Origin: Leptolyngbyaceae cyanobacterium
GTDB lineage: Bacteria > Cyanobacteriota > Cyanobacteriia > Phormidesmidales > Phormidesmidaceae
Length of the DNA: 64,000 bases
Direction: 5' to 3'
NCBI GenBank assembly: GCA_965263355.1
Contig: CBDHHL010000032.1
Span: 3,680,001 to 3,744,000 of the forward strand
Translations under genes and position numbers: made by a program
Notes under the pieces: generated by a model
Database searches by the model: none
The model's input: the letters and a program-made list of their open reading frames with translations, nothing else
Told to the model about the DNA's origin: nothing
Part shown: piece by piece, positions 1 to 44,147 of the stretch
Numbering within the stretch: the first letter of the stretch is position 1
Layout of the letters: every line of letters begins with the position of its first letter

Positions 1-527
1 AAAGCATAAACCAGAATCAAGACAATGGCCACAGATACAGAAAGACGCTGCAATGTAGCTTCAGTAATGGATGGGGAGGTAAAATCCACTGCTGTCGGTA
101 ATAAGATCGCGATCACCGCCAGATTCATGGACGATGCATTCATGCGAGCAATCACTGGCTGGAATTTCTGTTCTTTAAATTTAATGCCTCCTAGCAGCAT
201 AGACAGGCCCATGACCAGTAGCAGGTTACCAATGATGGAGCCCGTAATACTGGACTTAACGATATCAATCAGGCCTGCATTTAATGCAATCAGAGCAATA
301 ATCAATTCTGTGGCGTTACCAAAGGTGGCATTGAGTAAGCCTCCCAAGGATGGCCCTAACACCACAGCGATTTCCTCAGTGGCATGCCCCATCCAACCCG
401 CTAACGGAATAATGGCAATGGCAGCCGTAACAAAAACCGCCAGGTCACCCCACCCAAGGAAATAAGCGGCGGCTGAAATAGGCACAAATATAAGCAGACC
501 AAAGAAAATTAGGTTTTTGATGGACAT
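1..527 (-). CDS. cax: Ca2+/H+ antiporter (CAX/ChaA family); 5' part only, runs off the window edge
   Basis: Manual translation from ATG at 527: MSIKNLIFFGLLIFVPIS...IIPLAGWMGHATEEIA...GGLLNATFGNATELII...GSIIGNLLL. GNATE is the CAX alpha-1 repeat motif. Absent from the ORF track because its stop lies outside the window. Confidence 0.9.
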   Translation of the reverse strand, partial: MSIKNLIFFGLLIFVPISAAAYFLGWGDLAVFVTAAIAIIPLAGWMGHATEEIAVVLGPSLGGLLNATFGNATELIIALIALNAGLIDIVKSSITGSIIGNLLLVMGLSMLLGGIKFKEQKFQPVIARMNASSMNLAVIAILLPTAVDFTSPSITEATLQRLSVSVAIVLILVYA

Positions 528-7832: not shown

Positions 7833-8720
7833 CTAAATGCCAGGACGAGCCAAAGATGGCAGACTGCTAATTGTGGAAACAGCCTCTGTTGAAGGTTCTT
7901 CTTCTTCAACTGGTTCGTCTGCGGCGGTCACCAGACGTTCTACCTCAATACCGTTCTCAACCAAAATTACTCGCGGTTCTATTGACCCCGTATCAATGCG
8001 CTTGACAAAGACGCTACCACCAGCAATTCTTTCACCTTGTCTGACATAGCGTTCTATTTCGTTCGGTGCTTTAACAATGGCATAAGGAGATCCACCAATT
8101 TGGATCACACCTGATACCCTAACAGCCCTAGCAGTGGTGGGCTGAGGAATTTCAGGTAATACTGCTATTTCCGGAGGTGCCGACTCGACCTGACGTTCTG
8201 ATATGCTCGGGCGTCCCTCTTCAGTGCCACCAGCGTTTCTTGATGAGCCTGCTGGCACTGTACTTCCTCGGGTTAATGTCCTCGGGGAGGCTGGGCCAGA
8301 AGCAGCGTTGTTACTGCTAGCTCTAACGTTATTACTGCTGGCCCTAACGTTATTATTGCTAGCCCTTACCGCTTCTGGAACTTCGATCGGTTCAGGAGGA
8401 ATTAGAGGAATTGTTAATTCTGCAAAGGGATCATTGCGAGTCCGCTCTACCCCAATAGCCCTTTCATTTGGATCGGTAGACTGAATTAAATCGCGGGCAA
8501 TGATCGTAGGAGAATTTTCTGAGATTGAAACTATACCATCTGAATCTTCTCCCTCAGGGATATCAGGGAGCTTCCCTTCCGATTTTTTTATCGGTTGAGT
8601 AATTGGCTCAGTTGAGGGAGCTGGATCTTCAGCAACATCGGTGTTGCGATTAAAGAACCCACAACCGCTCAGGGAAATTGCCCCAGTTGTTATTAGCAAT
8701 ACCAAGAGCAGACGCTGCAT
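7833..8720 (-). CDS. Lipoprotein with low-complexity linker and PilP/GspC-HR-like C-terminal beta domain
   Basis: Lipobox LSGC (Cys20 from ATG 8720), RNDPF motif, VSGVIQIGGSPYAIV...YVRQGERIAGG.VFVKRI. Confidence 0.6.
   Translation of the reverse strand: MQRLLLVLLITTGAISLSGCGFFNRNTDVAEDPAPSTEPITQPIKKSEGKLPDIPEGEDSDGIVSISENSPTIIARDLIQSTDPNERAIGVERTRNDPFAELTIPLIPPEPIEVPEAVRASNNNVRASSNNVRASSNNAASGPASPRTLTRGSTVPAGSSRNAGGTEEGRPSISERQVESAPPEIAVLPEIPQPTTARAVRVSGVIQIGGSPYAIVKAPNEIERYVRQGERIAGGSVFVKRIDTGSIEPRVILVENGIEVERLVTAADEPVEEEEPSTEAVSTISSLPSLARPGI
8307..8369. repeat. Three in-frame 21-bp tandem repeats (NNVRASS)
   Basis: gttgttactgctagctctaac / gttattactgctggccctaac / gttattattgctagcccttac. Confidence 0.85.
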
Positions 8721-8785
8721 CTTTCCATCCTCCAAGGTCTTTTGTTCGCAAAGTATAAAGCAAGATCTGCCGAATGCATAGAGGT

Positions 8786-26164: not shown

Positions 26165-26307
26165 GCGTAGACCTATCCATACGCTATCAAAATTTTCATT
26201 AACCCCGATTAACAGGACAATCCTGTACGGGGGCAGTAAGGGGCAATCCCTTGTGGATGCCCTGCTGATATCGGCTATCCACAAGGATTTCGTATCGGTT
26301 CGATAGA
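26165..26307 (+). repeat. ~140-bp REP-containing dispersed element, copy 1
   Basis: gcgtagacctatccatacgctatcaaa...ggggcaatcccttgtggatgccct...aggatttcgtatcgg..cgataga, shared with 32015 and (inverted) 34852. Confidence 0.9.
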
Positions 26308-26310
26308 TTC

Positions 26311-26331
26311 GTAGGGTGGGCATGACCCACC
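26311..26331 (+). repeat. GTAG-type REP hairpin
   Basis: GTAG followed by ggtgggcatgacccacc; related inverted half-copies (caccctacgg) occur at about 30910 and 30990. Confidence 0.65.
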
Positions 26332-26338
26332 ATTCTAA

Positions 26339-26737
26339 TTAATCGTCCTTAGGAAACTTACATTTCACCTCGACCTCAAAGTTGCTCTCAGCTGAGCCGT
26401 TAACCAGCACCGGGACATTCGCACCACCGCTAAACTTGAGCCCAAACTTAAAATTCAGTTCTTCCACCTCTGCACCGCCCATATTTTTAAACGCATCAAT
26501 CACAAACCTGGCGTAGGTGCTAATGGTGCCATTGATTTCTCGCAGTTTGACCAACGTTTCTTTAGCAACGGTGGAGCGAGGTTGACTACCGTAAGATTCA
26601 TCGTCGTCCCAAAGGGTACCATCGCGTTTGGCATCTTTTTTAGGGGCACTGGGCACAACATCATCATCGGTTTGAATATAAACGGTATATTCGGCACCGG
26701 ACTCGTCTTGGACCACATAGGGTTGAATTTTGCTCAT
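26339..26737 (-). CDS. Trypco1 / CU044_2847-like small protein
   Basis: C-terminal alternating beta-hairpin AEVEELNFKFGLKFSGGANVPVLVNGSAESNFEVEVKCKF, preceded by a helix and an acidic linker. Confidence 0.75.
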   Translation of the reverse strand: MSKIQPYVVQDESGAEYTVYIQTDDDVVPSAPKKDAKRDGTLWDDDESYGSQPRSTVAKETLVKLREINGTISTYARFVIDAFKNMGGAEVEELNFKFGLKFSGGANVPVLVNGSAESNFEVEVKCKFPKDD

Positions 26738-26845
26738 GGGGGGAATTAGGAAATTGCTAGATAATCAGACCGGATCGGGAATGTTCGCTATGGTATTTGG
26801 AGAAATTGATAGATACGTTGAACCTTAAGCCTTTGTTTGTGTGGC

Positions 26846-29800
26846 ATGGCTAAATACGCCCTGGTAATCGGTCTAACTGACTATAGTAATGACTTTAACC
26901 CGCTCACCAGACCGGCAGCGGATGCTCAGGCCGTAGCCCAGATACTACAGACCAGCGGCTATCGCATTACGCCGATTTTAGCGGCGGCAAACTACGACGA
27001 TATTGTGGCCCAGCTAAAATCGTTTTTGCAGCAGACGGCCCATAAACATGAGGCGCTGATCTACATCACGGGCCATAGCTTTCTCGTGCAAGACGACTTG
27101 ACTGACGAGCAGGCTGGCTATATTGCTACCTCTGACTGTCGGGTGCGGTACGACGGCAACGACACCATTGTGGAACAGCGCGGTGGCATTCCGTTTGTGA
27201 ACTTTAACAAGCTGATTGCCAGGGCAGAGTTAAGTAATTTGGTGCTGCTGTTGGATACCTGCCATAGTGGTGGGCTGATTGAGCAGGGGCTGTTTCAGCA
27301 GAGCTTTAGCAGCTTTGGCCAAAAGACCGACTACTTTTTTATTACCGCTGCCCGCAGTTCAGAAGCGGCCTGGGCTAAGGCGGGGGCGGAGCACAGCGTA
27401 TTTACAACGGCATTGCTGAGTGGGTTGGCAGCAGAAAATGCGCCAGAGGGTGGAGCCATTACTGGGGATGATTTGTTTGCCCATATTGTTCGGCAGGTGA
27501 AGCATGAGCAGCAGGAACCCATGCGGCTGGGCCAGGGACGGTCGATTGAGATTGTGCGCCATGGCACAGCCAAACTGAATGCCCAAGTAAGTGAAAAGAA
27601 CCCCTATCAAGGTCTAAAGGCGTTTGACGAAGACTCTAAAGCGTTCTTTTTTGGGCGAGAAAGAGAGATTGAGCTGTTGCTGGCGAAACTGAGCCAGACA
27701 AACTTTGTGCCAGTGATTGGGGTGTCGGGCAGTGGCAAGTCGTCGGTGGTGCGGGCGGGGCTGATACCGGCACTGCGGCAGATGGGCAACTGGCGAATTT
27801 TAGCGCCGATCAAGCCGGGGATAGAGCCCATGGCGATGCTGAAAAATGCATTTTGTCAGCTAGTCAGCCACAGTCGCGATGTAAACCGCATGGCGGAGTG
27901 CATTGGTGAGAAGGATTTACTGGGGGCGGTGGCGCTGCTGCCGGACAGTCTGGACACCGAAAAACTATTGCTGGTGGTGGACCAGTTTGAAGAAGTGTTT
28001 GCCCTGGGCTCGCCAACATCAGAAAAGCAGCAGTTTATTGACTGTCTAACCAAGATTGCCAGGGTAAAAGACTCGCCACTGGCCATTGTCACCACCATGC
28101 GGGCGGACTTTTTGCCAGACTGGTTGAGCTATGGGGAACTGATCGAGTCGATTCAGCAAGATGCCGTATTTCTGGGGCGGTTGCAGGGGCAGGCGCTGCT
28201 AGATGCGGTGGAAAAACCGGCCCTGGTGCAGGGGCACAGCATTGAAAACGGTCTGCTGCAGCTAATTGCCGATGACATGAAAGCAGCCAGTAATGCCCTG
28301 CCGCTGTTGGAGTTTGCACTAGAAGCGCTGTGGGATCAGCGGGATACCCAGAACCACTGTTTGACGGTGGATGCTTACACGGGGATGGACCGGCTGAAGG
28401 GAACGTTGGATAGCCAGGCGACGAAGGTGTATGACCGGTTGGCGAAGACTGAACAGAGCTGGTGCCGTCGGGTGTGTTTAAGCCTGATTCGCATAGGTAA
28501 GGACGGAAAGGATACACGGCAGCGGCAGCCCCGAGAAAAGCTGCTGGCCATGGGGCAGACCGACAGTGAAAAAGAACTGATTGACTATGTGATCGATCGG
28601 CTGGTGGGGGCACGGCTGTTGGTGACCGGTGGGGATGGACAGCAGCGCTATGTGGATATTGCCCATGAAGCGCTGATGGATGGGTGGCAGCAGTTTGCCG
28701 ACTGGCGACAGGAAAATCGAGATTTACAACGGCTGGGGCAGCGGACACGGGATGCCTATGAGGAATGGGTGGGCCATGGTAAGCATCCGGACTATTTAAT
28801 CCCTAGCGGGTTATTAGCAGAACTACGAGAGCTGGCCGGTACGGTGCGAAACGATGTGCTATTGGCTACGGACCTGCGCACGTTTTTTACCCGCAGTGAC
28901 GAACAAGATCAGCAGCAACGGGCTGCTCTAGAGAAGGCTTTAGCCGATGCTCAAATCCAGGACCGCTCCCGTAAAATTCGTGACAAGCTAATCAATTTGC
29001 CTCAGTACACCGTCGAGGCCACCCTGGAAGCCATGGACACGGTCAACGATAGCCTGGTGGCGTTTAAAGGTGAGGTAAAACACTCGGCTCAATATGCCCT
29101 TAACCAAACCTGGCAGAAAATTCTTGAACGGCTAAAGCTGGAGGGCCATAGCGGCTCGGTTTTGGCCGTGGCCTTTAGCCCCGAGGGGGATCGGATTGTC
29201 TCCGGCAGCAAACCCTGCGCCTGTGGGATCGCGAGGGCAACCCCATCGGTGACCCCCTCCAGGGCCATAGCGACTCGGTTTGGGCCGTGGCCTTTAGCCC
29301 CGAGGGGGATCGGATTGTCTCCGGCAGCGATGATAAAACCCTGCGCCTGTGGGATCGCGAGGGCAACCCCATCGGTGACCCCCTCCAGGGCCATAGCGAC
29401 TCGGTTAGGGCCGTGGCCTTTAGCCCCGAGGGGGATCGGATTGTCTCCGGCAGCGGTGATAAAACCCTGCGCCTGTGGGATCGCGAGGGCAACCCCATCG
29501 GTGAGCCCCTCCAGGGCCATAGCGACTTTTGGCCGTGGCCTTTAGCCCCGAGGGGGATCGGATTGTCTCCGGCAGCGGTGATCAAACCCTGCGCCTGTGG
29601 GATCGCGAGGGCAACCCCATCGGTGACCCCCTCCAGGGCCATAGCGGCTCGGTTTAGGGCCGTGGCCTTTAGCCCCGAGGGGGATCGGATTGTCTCCGGC
29701 AGTAATGATAAAACCCTGCGCCTGTGGGATCGCGAGGGCAACCCCATCGGTGAGCCCCTCCAGGGCCATAGCGGCTCGGTTTTGGCCGTGGCCTTTAGCC

Positions 29801-30800
29801 CCGAGGGGGATCGGATTGTCTCCGGCAGCGATTGTCTGATCAAACCCTGCGCCTGTGGGATCGCGAGGGCAACCCCATCGGTGAGCCCCTCCAGGGCCAT
29901 AGCGACTCGGTTAGGGCCGTGGCCTTTAGCCCCGAGGGGGATCGGATTGTCTCCGGCAGCGATGATAAAACCCTGCGCCTGTGGGATCGCGAGGGCAACC
30001 CCATCGGTGAGCCCCTCCAGGGCCATAGCGAGGGCCGTGGCCTTTAGCCCCGAGGGGGATCGGATTGTCTCCGGCAGCGGTGATAAAACCCTGCGCCTGT
30101 GGGATCGCGAGGGCAACCCCATCGGTGAGCCCCTCCAGGGCCATAGCGGCTCGGTTAGGGCCGTGGCCTTTAGCCCCGAGGGGGATCGGATTGTCTCCGG
30201 CAGCGGTGATCAAACCCTGCGCCTGTGGGATCGCGAGGGCAACCCCATCGGTGAGCCCCTTAGCGACTCGGTTTGGGCCGTGGCCTTTAGCCCCGAGGGG
30301 GATCGGATTGTCTCCGGCAGCCCCGAGGGGGATCGGATTGTCTCCGGCATGATCAAACCCTGCGCCTGTGGGATCGCGAGGGCAACCCCATCGGTGAGCC
30401 CCTCCAGGGCCATAGCGGCTCGGTTTTGGCCGTGGCCTTTAGCCCCGAGGGGGATCGGATTGTCTCCGGCAGCGATGATCAAACCCTGCGCCTGTGGGAT
30501 CGCATCCGCTGGCAGGACTGGCTCCACGACTGCTGCACCAAGCTGTTGCACCACAGCGACCTGGTGCGACCCAAAACTGATGTGGCGAAGCAGGCCTGTC
30601 AAGTCTGCATGGACCATGGCTGGACTCCACAGGAGCGGGCAACGTTTTTGGTGGCCCAGGGTAAGTCGCTGGCCTATTACCAGCAAGATGTGGACGGGGC
30701 AGTGGCGAAGTTTGAGGCAGCGTTGGCGATTGACGAGGCGGCGTTAGATACCGAGCCGAGGGCGCTGGCGGAGAAAATAAAGGAGTGGGCCTCTCCCTAA
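26846..30800 (+). CDS. Caspase-like protease (C14) + nSTAND1 NTPase + WD40 repeats + C-terminal TPR-like segment; frameshifted within the repeats as assembled
   Basis: KYALVIG, ITGHS and LDTCHSG dyad, NPYQGL.AF, GVSGSGKSS Walker A, VVDQFEE Walker B, MRADF, LPLLEFAL, HEAL. Then GHS.SV.AVAFSPEGDRIVSGS.D.TLRLWD repeats spread over three frames, and an in-frame tail ending at TAA 30800. Confidence 0.85.
29140..30503 (+). repeat. About 11 near-identical 126-bp tandem repeats encoding WD40 blades
   Basis: Unit cagggccatagcg.ctcggtt..ggccgtggcctttagccccgagggggatcggattgtctccggcagc...accctgcgcctgtgggatcgcgagggcaaccccatcggtga.cccctc. Confidence 0.97.
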
Positions 30801-30818: not shown

Positions 30819-30890
30819 TGTAATGGAAAACGGATGTAATGGAAAACGAACAGTGACGATATCTCCCGCCTGTAGCGCCTGTCCACTCAT
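30819..30890 (-). pseudogene. 5' remnant of a PemK/MazF-like toxin gene
   Basis: ATG 30890 reads MSGQALQAGDIVTVRFP, a typical PemK N-terminal strand. Similarity ends at a 14-bp direct duplication (tgtaatggaaaacg). Confidence 0.45.
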
Positions 30891-31187
30891 GGCCGAACGA
30901 TAATTGTGCCACCCTACGGCTGATTTCCAGGGGCTGGTGGGTAAGGGCATTGGCTACGGTTTATTGTCTACAGATTGGGGACCATTACCCACCCTACGGA
31001 TTGACCACCTGGATCTTCCCCCCTCACGAAGAGCAGGGCTACTTCATTGTCTAGACAGAAAATCTGAGGGCATTGAAAGCTCATTTGAGGAAGACATGCT
31101 CTACCTAGAGCTGGGCCAAACAACAATGCGATAACCTGATTAATCGTCCCTGCCGTAACCCTTATTTATGCAATTAAGGACAACTCA

Positions 31188-31281
31188 GTAGGCCGGGTTC
31201 TAGGGCGGCCTCTGGCCCTAGCCATGGGGGTTTGGGGAACTCGGAGGGACCCCAAGCAACCGGTTTTGGTTCCCGCCGGTC
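31188..31281. repeat. GC-rich multi-hairpin intergenic element
   Basis: ctagggc...gccctag, ttgggg...ccccaa and accgg...ccggt stems in succession after gtagg. Confidence 0.45.
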
Positions 31282-41094: not shown

Positions 41095-41928
41095 ATGAAT
41101 GTCTTAGGTAATCTTCTGTCGCGTGCTCTGGCTGTGCCAGTCATGGTAGGGCCGCGTAAATCTCAGGGGATTGAGTTGAAGGGGGCACAAGATCAGGAGA
41201 CGATGCGGCAAGCTGGTCGGATTGTGGCTATAGTCCTGAAGGAAATTGCTGAGCTAGTGCAGCCCGGTATGACGACGGCGGATTTGGATGCCCATGCAGA
41301 GAAACGCATCTGCGAGATGGGTGCAACGCCAAGTTTTAAGGGATATCATGGTTTTCCTGGTTCCATCTGTGCCAGCATCAACGATGAAGTGGTGCATGGT
41401 ATTCCCCGGAAGCGTAAGGTGATTAAAGCAGGGGATTTACTTAAGGTTGATACAGGTGCTTATTTCGAGGGCTTTCACGGGGACTCGTGTATCACCATTG
41501 CGGTTGGCAAGATAAGTGCTAAAGCCCAGTCCTTGATGCAGGCGGCTGAGGATGCCTTATATGCTGGTGTGGCTCAGGCATTACCTGGAAAAACCCTATT
41601 AGATATTGCTGGGGCAATTGAAGATAGCATTCAATTGAGTGGATATACAGTGGTTGAAGAGTTTACAGGCCATGGTGTGGGCAGAAACCTGCATGAGCCG
41701 CCGTCAGTATTTAACTTTCGCACTAAAGAATTACCCAATGTGACGCTAAAGCCGGGGATGGCCTTAGCGATTGAGCCGATTGTCAATGAGGGGTCTAAGG
41801 TGACGCGGACCCTAAGGGATCGGTGGACTGTGGTGACGTGCGATCGCAAACTTTCCGCTCAGTTTGAACACACTGTCCTAATCACCAAAGATGGCCAAGA
41901 AATTCTGACTGACCGGTCTAAAGTTTAG
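41095..41928 (+). CDS. map: Methionine aminopeptidase type I
   Basis: [34 protein letters not shown]. Confidence 0.96.
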
Positions 41929-43009
41929 TTAGTTTTGCTAGATCCACGCAAGTATCCTGGTTGTAGTCCACGTCAACATTGACTGTATAGGCTGTAGACG
42001 CGTTTTCCTCTGGAAAGTCAGTGTAGTCTTGGATCTTTTCTAGGGCAATGTCGTTGAGAAACGCATACCCAGAGCTGCGTAATAGAGTTGGTTCGGTTGC
42101 GATCGCTCCATCTGCATCAACCATGACACCGACTAATCCTTTTTCTGGTACAGGTGTCAGGCAACTGAGAAAGCGTCTACCATCATCGTTATCTATAAAC
42201 GGATAGCTAATTTCTATCGCCTCATCTAATTCTTTAGTTTCAGATATCTCTAGCCCTGTCTGCTCACTTAAAGTTGTCAGCCAAGTTTTCTGAATTTCTT
42301 CCATTTCAGGCTCTGTTGTGTGCCGCACGCTGTGCTGTAATCGAGCCAAAATCTCTTGCAGAAGGTTAGGCACTTCCCGTGATTGCGCCCCCTGTTTTAA
42401 AGCCACCAAGGTAGGCGGTGTTTGCCCAGTATCTGAGTCGCGACTAGTGGGGCTAGTATTGGTTGAACTGTTGTTAGCTGCCTGATTACTGTTGTTAGCT
42501 GCCTGATTATTGTTAGACGGTAGTACAGCTATTTCATTATTGCTATTCCGGTTAGCCGTTTGATTTGATCGATTATTGCGGTTTCTATTACTACCATCTG
42601 CATTGCCAGTGGCCCGGCGACGGTTGGTTGAACTGCTGCGATTAGATGTATTACTATTGCTGGAAGACGAAGATGCTTGCCTACTTTGAGTTCGGCGTGT
42701 TTGAGCTGTCCCCTGCTGAGCGGTTGTTGCAGTTTGTCCTGCAGTAGTTGCAGGACGCTGCTGTACAGCGGCGACAACACCAGCGGTCGTTGGTCTAGCT
42801 GTGGGGGTAGGCGCTCCTTTTGCTGCTGGTTTGGCTGGTTGTGTTGCTTTAGGTGGAATCCGAGTTACCGTAATGCTTTCCCCTTCTGGGTCCGGAGCGG
42901 GCACCACTGCATCAGACGAACCTCCTGCTACTGGAATAAGTAATAGCCCGGCATGCAGACCCGCTGCCAGCAAAAAAATAGGATTAAAAAGAATTTTCAA
43001 AACATTCAT
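41918..43009 (-). CDS. TonB-like protein (TM with His, low-complexity linker, TonB C-terminal domain)
   Basis: [10 protein letters not shown] anchor; VGVMVDADG...[16 protein letters not shown]...YTVNV.V.Y. Confidence 0.7.
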
Positions 43010-43208: not shown

Positions 43209-44147
43209 TTAGCCCTGACGGGGGTCGTTAGGCCAGACGAACACTAGCGTTGTTCCTTTCAAATCGATTAAAGATATGTAATTAACGGGTTGATTATTCG
43301 CATCGTAAACACCATAAAAAGGATGACCACCATATAGCCCTTCATCCACTTGAGTCATACCTGCATTGATCAGAGCCTGCCCTAGGCCTTCTCGATTTAC
43401 AAGATCAATGTTTCTGGAAATTTGCTTAAATGTTGCTTCAGGCAGTGGCTGATAAGTGCCATCACTGATGCTATTAGCCGTAAAAAAGGCGCTAGGATCA
43501 AACACATTCTGAATATCTTGTGCTCTAAAACGTAGGTCAAGGGGATCAGTGCTTAACCATTGATCAGTAATATCAAAATTGCTAGTCCCTTCACTTGAGG
43601 CTCCCAAGAACTGACTTAATTGACTATTGAGGGCATCTTGCTGCACAGGGTCAAAGGCAAAGGACTGTTCAACTGGCTCTTCTTCAAATTCCTCTTCAAA
43701 TTCTTCCTCTTCTGGTAGTTCTTCAATAATCTCCTCTAATTCTTCAGGTACTTCGGTTAGAACTGGAGGGGCTACAACAGTTGCTGGTGGTGGTGCCTCT
43801 GGCGGGGGTGCTTGAGGTTCTTCGGGGGGAGGAGGAGGAACAGGTTCTTCCGGAGCTAAAATATCACTCAGACTAACTGCCTCAATCGTGACTTCTTCTT
43901 CAGGTTCTGGCTCTAAAACTTCTTCTACTTTAGGTGCTGATAGATCGACAGCAGGGAGAAGCAATAACAATCCATGGGTGCCTAATGCCAGCCAAACCAC
44001 AGGACGTCTTAAGAAGCAAAATCCATAGGTTGAGAGCTGTGCAGTTACATAGGGCAGCGCTCGAATAAACAGAATTGGCTGGAATACAACATTCTTAGCC
44101 AGTCTGACCATAGGATTACCCGACTCAGAAGAACCAATGCTAGCCAT
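43209..44147 (-). CDS. Pro/Glu-rich membrane-anchored protein with a TonB-like N-terminus and an unrecognised C-terminal domain
   Basis: ALGTHGLLLLLP anchor, EPEPEEE/PPPPP linker. Confidence 0.6.
   Translation of the reverse strand: MASIGSSESGNPMVRLAKNVVFQPILFIRALPYVTAQLSTYGFCFLRRPVVWLALGTHGLLLLLPAVDLSAPKVEEVLEPEPEEEVTIEAVSLSDILAPEEPVPPPPPEEPQAPPPEAPPPATVVAPPVLTEVPEELEEIIEELPEEEEFEEEFEEEPVEQSFAFDPVQQDALNSQLSQFLGASSEGTSNFDITDQWLSTDPLDLRFRAQDIQNVFDPSAFFTANSISDGTYQPLPEATFKQISRNIDLVNREGLGQALINAGMTQVDEGLYGGHPFYGVYDANNQPVNYISLIDLKGTTLVFVWPNDPRQG

Follow-up and report, generated by a model that had tools for sequence, protein, structure and literature searches.

In characterised families, STAND NTPases assemble into oligomers when they bind a ligand and then activate an N-terminal effector. 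Among the protease-linked effectors of a published survey, the Pepco family is the most abundant; the available text of Evans et al. (10.1101/2025.11.14.688446) describes it as including Trypco1 and Trypco2, lying beside serine or cysteine proteases and being prevalent in cyanobacteria. The only member tested there, SsPepco, has the Trypco2 layout; it forms 9-10-mer barrels and kills after being cut at Ile97. In this work we describe a related locus at positions 26339 to 30800 of a stretch of 64,000 nucleotides (nt), hereafter the window, from a Leptolyngbyaceae cyanobacterium (GCA_965263355.1, contig CBDHHL010000032.1, positions 3,680,001 to 3,744,000, forward strand). It comprises a small gene for a Trypco1 protein (P0001) and a divergent large gene for a caspase-nSTAND1-WD40 sensor. 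On balance it is probable that the sensor cuts the linker of the Trypco1 protein, most likely between Tyr49 and Gly50, and thereby releases a predicted killing beta-barrel pore.

Trypco1 and Trypco2 were defined beside trypsins by Kaur et al. 2020 (PMC7159879), nSTAND1 was named by Kaur et al. 2021, and Dore et al. reported Trypco genes near trypsin- or caspase-like peptidases. A survey of STAND proteins (10.64898/2026.01.04.697583) listed caspase-STAND-propeller proteins, with the closest forms in cyanobacteria. Because these papers and that of Evans et al. describe them, the kind of module and its caspase partner are already known, and the earlier note on this DNA, which took the caspase pairing for the notable twist, was mistaken on this point: the pairing is in the 2025 preprint, and 27 of 138 sampled Trypco1 genes face a caspase. 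In the accessible literature, outside which most subscription papers lie, no test of a Trypco1-layout protein, no orientation rule and no linker motifs were found. What is added here, and was not found in print, is a predicted different gate (the C-tail gate being missing), a linker address motif that follows the protease class, a cassette swap, and a symmetric -10-like TATnnTA element as a candidate shared promoter.

Five described systems resemble the locus in part. In SsPepco-SsAvs4 of Streptomyces subrutilus, a small Pepco gene likewise lies beside a protease-STAND fusion, and its product combines an amphipathic helix with a long beta-hairpin; by eye, SsPepco has the layout of Pfam Trypco2 matches. 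However, it starts with the helix, loses a 20-residue C-tail after a conserved Ile (Ile97) and has a trypsin-like protease downstream, whereas P0001 has an extra N-terminal hairpin and linker, no tail, a caspase, divergent genes and a WD40 sensor. Here a Pepco gene adjoins a cysteine protease fused to a sensor, as in other Pepco modules, and the C-tail of SsPepco is lacking. In the EACC1-caspase system (KrEACC1-KrAvs12; Kaur et al. 2020, Evans et al. 2025), as far as the available description goes, a caspase-STAND protein cuts its small neighbour internally into an inhibitory N-part and a pore-forming C-part. The small protein there is EACC1, encoded upstream in the same direction, whereas Trypco1 is the sole Pfam match of P0001, and the caspase has the EACC1-associated type (NF047832) as its best NCBIfam match at 78.4 bits, below the cut-off of 140. 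Trypco1 also stands next to a peptidase in the Trypco1-trypsin pairs known from VMAP ternary systems in multicellular bacteria (PMC7159879); those were defined with trypsin, however, and the paper, in the text available, pairs caspases with alpha/beta-hydrolases, whereas the neighbour here is a caspase and no trypsin. MoxR, vWA and VMAP genes were absent from the window proteins scanned, and the locus does not qualify as a VMAP ternary system. The Apaf-1-like bacterial STANDs (10.64898/2026.01.04.697583) share the caspase-STAND-beta-propeller order, although the accessible text names no Trypco1 partner or ligand for them, and the likeness noted is one of layout. Finally, fungal NWD/HET-E proteins and repetitive prokaryotic WD40 proteins (PMC4986451, PMC5587647) share near-identical WD repeats with few variable positions; the fungal ones, in the parts of these papers available, combine NACHT with HET or other effectors and have no Trypco1 partner. 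The overall STAND receptor order of effector, intact NTPase and repeat sensor is present, with the repeats in frame in relatives but not in this assembly.

In hidden Markov model searches, P0001 (132 amino acids, aa) exceeds the cut-offs of Pfam Trypco1 (PF19493; 58.1 bits against 24.6) and of the NCBIfam family CU044_2847_fam (60.6 against 23), which bears out the identity supposed earlier. The acidic linker described in the earlier note was located at DDDV (aa 24-27) and DDDESYG (aa 44-50). A monomer model of low confidence (pLDDT 48.5) has two N-terminal strands (E3-10 and E16-23), a disordered linker (24-58), a helix (59-84) and strands at 94-126. The helix and amphipathic hairpin read earlier from the letters are thus recovered, and the strands alternate hydrophobic and polar residues (p 0.0004 and 0.001 against shuffles), while the helix moment has p 0.048. 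No relative of solved structure was found by sequence at E values up to 1. Residues 63-129 weakly match Trypco2 aa 4-82 by profile comparison (E 0.0009-0.003, probability 11-24%). Only four residues of P0001 follow the last strand, leaving the Trypco2 segment 83-99 (of 99) without a counterpart; Trypco1 tails are short in all classes, with medians of 4-7 residues. Because of these two features, the published C-tail mechanism is not transferable to Trypco1, and, since P0001 lacks a C-terminal tail, a cut in its linker is the better guess. Pfam matches of Trypco2 begin with the helix and hence have no N-terminal hairpin. A circular permutation, in which the N-terminal hairpin of Trypco1 would equal the C-terminal hairpin of Trypco2, was considered and is unsupported (profile E 0.04-0.28, probability about 1% or less). 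The Trypco1 subtypes differ at the C-terminus, with a C-x-F-type strand in 61 of 64 caspase-linked proteins and L-x-W in 49 of 57 trypsin-linked ones. Five Trypco1 proteins of 204-221 aa (L153, L170, L171, L172 and L189) extend at the C-terminus into a long acidic stretch rich in aromatic residues, and no caspase or trypsin gene adjoins theirs. Three Trypco2 proteins (L211, L212 and L213) carry a helical-looking C-terminal extension at loci with no caspase or trypsin match.

The large gene encodes Peptidase_C14 (aa 3-224) followed by nSTAND1 (aa 253-648). Both domains had been called intact, and both are: the His/Cys dyad lies in TGHS (H77) and DTCHSG (C139), and the NTPase has Walker A GVSGSGKSS (292-300) and Walker B LLVVDQFEE. 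H77, D137 and C139 are invariant across 61 partner caspases. A model of the caspase domain (pLDDT 92) has GSU0716, MALT1 and metacaspases as its nearest folds; MALT1 and metacaspases prefer Arg. Complex prediction with two caspase domains and Trypco1 gave 0.01 and 0.19 against a mark of 0.32, values that count neither way.

The two genes are arranged head-to-head with 108 nt between them, as noted earlier (small gene 26339-26737 on the minus strand, ATG of the large gene at 26846). In a class-wide sample of 121 cyanobacterial genomes, Trypco1 occurred in 65, with 148 matches; 139 were fetched (the nine weakest being left out) and 138 were scored after exclusion of L184, which has two internal stops. 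The partner search covered caspases and trypsins within 900 nt, using profiles built from these loci. Of these 138 genes, 27 face a caspase, one is followed by a caspase and 55 by a trypsin, one has a convergent trypsin and six lie at contig edges; no head-to-head trypsin partner occurred in this sample. When a targeted order-level search was added (193 genes in total), 57 of 64 caspase partners were divergent, and six of the seven co-directional ones belong to one related group, TIR-AAA_35 where scanned. Five members of the caspase-TIR-AAA_35 group (L089, L090, L097, L100 and L102) carry [ED]-x-Y-R in the Trypco1 linker; L102 is head-to-head and the rest are mostly co-directional, and therefore orientation has flipped within one group. 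The pair itself recurs head-to-head in three of the four nearest relatives (in the fourth, the contig breaks off 93 nt upstream) and in all four plasmid loci examined out of seven matches, from cultured Acaryochloris, Nostoc and Gloeothece. Together with the co-variation below, this recurrence agrees with the earlier proposal that the two genes form a module. At L239 (NZ_CP071721.1), a protein annotated solely as a 'pentapeptide-repeat protein' has a caspase domain at its start; its gene is head-to-head with a Trypco1 gene, and 4 kb away a second Trypco1 gene lies beside a transposase.

Stand-alone Trypco1 genes of the caspase type account for 36 of the 138 and were found at recurring sites among housekeeping genes; judged by eye, the neighbours are fur-like (L007, L008, L010, L013), clpP/purF-like (L042, L044, L048), uvrA-like (L045, L047) and cobD-like (L049, L052, L053). 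The linkers of 15 of 24 dereplicated stand-alone proteins contain R-x(2,4)-K-[GS] (shuffle mean 0.8). These copies may be cut in trans, or may have been domesticated. Toxin-antitoxin-like pairs were seen by eye directly downstream of six members of the clade (L060, L063, L066, L072, L061 and L059).

Across 62 pairs, Trypco1 similarity is correlated with caspase similarity (Spearman 0.68; highest shuffled value 0.26), and the two proteins have the same nearest neighbour in 22 of 62 cases against at most five in shuffles. This co-variation is supporting only, since kin share history. A more direct case is genome G161 (L069/L227), whose locus has the same inositol monophosphatase (IMPase) neighbour as that of the window and is 87-88% identical to it in the NTPase, 93% in the linker after it and 84% in the tail, with only 35-37% identity in the caspase and 41% in Trypco1. 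The caspase and Trypco1 of G161 are nearest to the L058 / G280 pair (67% and 64%), whose NTPase (L058) is only 44% alike. The break lies at aa 250-280, the caspase-NTPase junction, and represents one event, in which one sensor exchanged its Trypco1 and caspase together as a cassette. As the exchange point is at this junction, the small gene follows the protease and not the sensor. Related cassettes were found on four NTPase/sensor types among the 31 partners scanned: nSTAND1-WD40, NB-ARC, nSTAND5-like and TIR-AAA_35. An exact in-frame duplication of about 21 codons was seen at the caspase-NTPase junction in the caspase gene of a relative (L003:2326-2742), in the same zone as the G161 break.

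The linkers were compared with shuffled sequences after dereplication at 60%, which left 33 trypsin-linked and 29 caspase-linked sequences. The pattern [EDQNRPK][VI][SAG] is present in 31/33 trypsin-linked linkers (shuffle mean 10.8, maximum 19) and 7/29 caspase-linked ones (shuffle mean 9.5). Conversely, [YMLK]G occurs in 23/29 caspase-linked linkers (mean 9.2, maximum 18) and in 5/33 trypsin-linked ones (6.9), and E-x-[YM]-[GSD] in 12/29 and 0/33, respectively. In 18 homologues, E47 and Y49 (P0001 numbering) are invariant within an otherwise variable linker. For comparison, SsPepco is cut after Ile97 of 117 residues, and in measurements on the serine proteases that act on SsPepco and MBL the residue before the cut (P1) is Ile (10.1101/2025.11.14.688446). 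The Val/Ile motif of the trypsin-linked proteins agrees with this measured P1, and it is therefore reasonable to read the linker motifs as cut sites. An Asp-directed cut in the linker appears doubtful, the conserved feature being E-x-[YM]-G and not Asp.

The gap between the two genes contains TATGGTA, which on either strand reads TAnnnT, positions 2 and 6 being paired. The general form TATnnTA occurs in 14 of 18 dereplicated gaps of the clade (26/33 in all; shuffle mean 2.8, maximum 9). Elsewhere it was found in 7/22 other caspase gaps, which is within the shuffle range, and in the upstream regions of 3/32 trypsin-linked and 3/27 stand-alone genes. The same geometry is the commonest bidirectional promoter according to Warman et al. 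A scan with the sigma-70 consensus returned 0 sites. From the sequence pattern, it is somewhat probable that one candidate bidirectional promoter drives both genes.

The WD40 array named earlier is present, although six frameshifts in it had been overlooked. Its units in the window vary at 8 of 126 positions: seven within five protein-changing codons (D/G/N, K/Q, D/E, D/G and W/R/L) and one silent. Repeats of the relatives vary at the same positions. Such hot-spot variation is known from highly repetitive prokaryotic WD40 proteins (Hu et al.) and from the highly conserved WD repeats of fungal NLRs and non-self receptors (Dyrka et al.; PMC4986451, PMC5587647 for both), and the variation in the window matches it. 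An origin through a diversity-generating retroelement was rejected within the window, where no copy of the unit lies outside the array and no reverse transcriptase is encoded among 42 further proteins.

Taken in order, the proposed mechanism would begin with the binding of a foreign molecule to the fast-varying WD40 propeller, a phage protein being the probable ligand; we regard this step as reasonably probable. By analogy, the STAND NTPase would oligomerise on the ligand and switch on the N-terminal caspase. A cut of Trypco1 within its internal linker is likely, and Y49|G50 is slightly favoured as its position; removal of the N-terminal hairpin would then, fairly likely, free the helix-hairpin core as a pore. 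Such a barrel or pore would fit the published Pepco work, and the gate logic would match that of EACC1, with an inhibitory N-part and a toxic C-part, on a Pepco barrel core.

Several observations weigh against this mechanism. The linker and promoter patterns were picked after viewing the sequences. Neither a caspase nor a trypsin lies within 900 nt of 48 of the 138 Trypco1 genes; some of these 'orphans' may be paired with a protease of another class. The small protein is not covered by any PADLOC model, and the accessible literature holds no cleavage, toxicity, expression or phage data for any Trypco1-layout protein. With respect to Tyr as P1, the nearest folds named above speak against it; the caspase also retains D26 and D137, which align with Asp residues of Arg-specific metacaspases and fit a basic P1 better, and Arg directly precedes the Glu of the motif in 16 of 34 clade linkers. 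The partners of E-x-[YM] linkers fall together in a single, weakly supported part of the caspase tree (88/60), and for this reason the residues they have in common (K/R22 in 34/37, T75 in 35/37) count as one event. Residues that might explain the P1 choice were sought without success, as the columns separating Tyr/Met from basic partners fall in one clade and are not independent. The same module could thus have an Arg/Lys-specific caspase that cuts at K34-R38 or R54, with E-x-Y-G as a docking or self-inhibition motif; the cut of LcCaspase at R|G (10.1101/2025.11.14.688446) and the R-x-x-x-K-G motif of another caspase-linked group point the same way. We consider this distinctly unlikely: 18 of the 34 linkers, including that of the window, lack the Arg, several (L069, L071, L074) have no basic residue before the motif, and KrAvs12 also has Asp before its Cys, yet its putative site, in the available description, is D49, followed by W-G. 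It is very unlikely that Trypco1 is instead an adaptor, a bait or a caspase inhibitor, with killing caused by caspase cleavage of host proteins. Trypco domains were treated as effector-associated adaptors by Dore et al., effector-free defensive caspases exist and many Trypco1 genes have no protease neighbour, but the homologous core kills after cleavage in SsPepco (10.1101/2025.11.14.688446), and the alternating strands suit a membrane barrel. The cassette swap does not separate these readings, as an inhibitor would co-vary with the caspase too.

A further point of the same kind is that the large gene is not one open frame as assembled, the frame stopping at 29545. The copy in the window could be a decaying pseudogene with real slippage and a dead sensor, in a family that still functions as described, and no read-derived contig spans the array (these contigs are drawn from a single study with two samples, of which one, comprising X1 and X2, may be the source). 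Of the runs X4-X8, which hold small shares, X4 was covered, and none of the runs was listed as RNA. Among the 11 units there are six frame-shifting indels and one in-frame 9-nt deletion. However, all six frameshifts lie where the units differ from one another, in two stretches that make up about 18 of the 126 nt (rough chance 8e-6), and no stop interrupts the caspase, NTPase, linker or tail. In the unique parts the read contigs agree with the assembly, with 0-4 differences and free of gaps; within the array they fall apart into short pieces whose depth is about 8-11 times as high. In addition, the three closest paired relatives are in frame to their contig limits, and two other assemblies hold runs of N in the array. 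We therefore regard the frameshifts as likely assembly errors, that is, consensus errors among non-identical repeats, and a true pseudogene as unlikely. As for the cue, no defence island was found around the locus and its neighbours are housekeeping genes, which also counts against an anti-phage role. Non-self cyanobacterial contact, a predator or stress could instead elicit cell death at the level of the filament, and in their behaviour the repeats resemble those of the fungal non-self receptors described by Dyrka et al. This is rather unlikely, given that phage proteins are what triggers those protease-effector STAND systems that have been tested (10.1101/2025.11.14.688446); the accessible text of the STAND survey (10.64898/2026.01.04.697583) names no ligand of WD40 type. 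Overall, the locus is a real and common branch of a known protease-activated pore system, and the mechanism first proposed for it remains broadly the best.

The features of the locus are listed in Table 1. The block was earlier said to be richer in GC than its flanks, which holds for the block as a whole (0.571 against 0.479 in the window), although most of the excess comes from the repeats (0.656). Without them the value is 0.527, slightly over the highest value among 2.8-kb segments outside the block (0.515; n=269), and the small gene has a host-like 0.469. Photosystem genes are present elsewhere in the window, and the gene on the other side of the small gene is that for the IMPase. The closest relatives of the small gene are in Leptolyngbya cf. 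ectocarpi and marine cyanobacterial metagenome-assembled genomes, and 0 relatives were found on viral contigs among 32 candidate stretches. A PADLOC run gave a partial caspase match only. Short palindromic or repeated elements flank the block at 26235-26335 and 30819-31200; these include a 14-nt tandem duplication at 30819-30848, and 31032-31192 is a dispersed repeat that matches many other read contigs. Four open reading frames of 146-363 aa in the window, at 25-462 (+), 7836-8735 (-), 41921-43009 (-) and 43212-44147 (-), have no Pfam match at E 1e-4.

Table 1. Features of the Trypco1-caspase locus in window coordinates
Feature	Position	Strand	Basis or remark
Small gene, Trypco1/Pepco-family protein	26339..26737	-	132 aa; PF19493 E 1.4e-15; NF041216; C-x-F-ending caspase-linked subtype; predicted latent pore effector
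N-terminal beta-hairpin, aa 3-23	26669..26731	-	Low-confidence model; no counterpart in Trypco2 layout; putative inhibitory cap
Acidic variable linker, aa 24-58	26564..26668	-	Model and homologue comparison
E47-S48-Y49-G50 motif, predicted caspase cut site Y|G	26588..26599	-	Conservation and class enrichment
Amphipathic helix aa 59-84 and long alternating beta-hairpin aa 94-128, putative Pepco barrel core	26354..26563	-	Model, strand pattern, weak Trypco2 profile match
TATGGTA, candidate bidirectional promoter	26789..26795	.	-10-like TAnnnT hexamer on both strands, middle of 108-nt gap
Caspase-like Peptidase_C14 domain	26846..27565	+	H77 codon 27074-27076, C139 codon 27260-27262
nSTAND1 NTPase, Walker A and B intact	27602..28789	+	PF20703 E 3.1e-105, 378/379 positions
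NTPase-to-repeat linker	28790..29141	+	Identity 83-93% in three relatives, 57% in a fourth
WD40 array, 11 near-identical 126-bp units	29142..30503	+	Few variable codons; as assembled, 6 indels that shift the frame and 1 deletion that keeps it
C-terminal segment, about 97 aa, stop at 30800	30504..30800	+	84% identical to end of intact L227 protein; out of frame with start as assembled

At the level of the family, we tentatively suggest, at somewhat less than an even chance, that Trypco1 represents a second class of Pepco pore toxins, one with an N-terminal gate, and that its linker holds an address for the protease (Val-small where the partner is a trypsin; Tyr/Met/Leu/Lys-Gly where it is a caspase). 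The caspase-fold protease of this clade would cut after Tyr/Met, and toxin, bidirectional promoter and caspase would make up one plug-in cassette moved between NLR-like sensors. Stand-alone copies with R-x-x-x-K-G would be shared executioners cut in trans, and the whole may amount to a gasdermin-like death pathway across filamentous cyanobacteria. The Trypco1 layout is the commoner one in the sampled cyanobacteria (65/121 genomes, against 13/151 for Trypco2). If the linker motif is the cut site, many cyanobacterial caspase homologues would gain named substrates and sites, and, if the reading is true, the much-discussed question of how programmed cell death is carried out in cyanobacteria could be tested directly with two genes and a point mutant.

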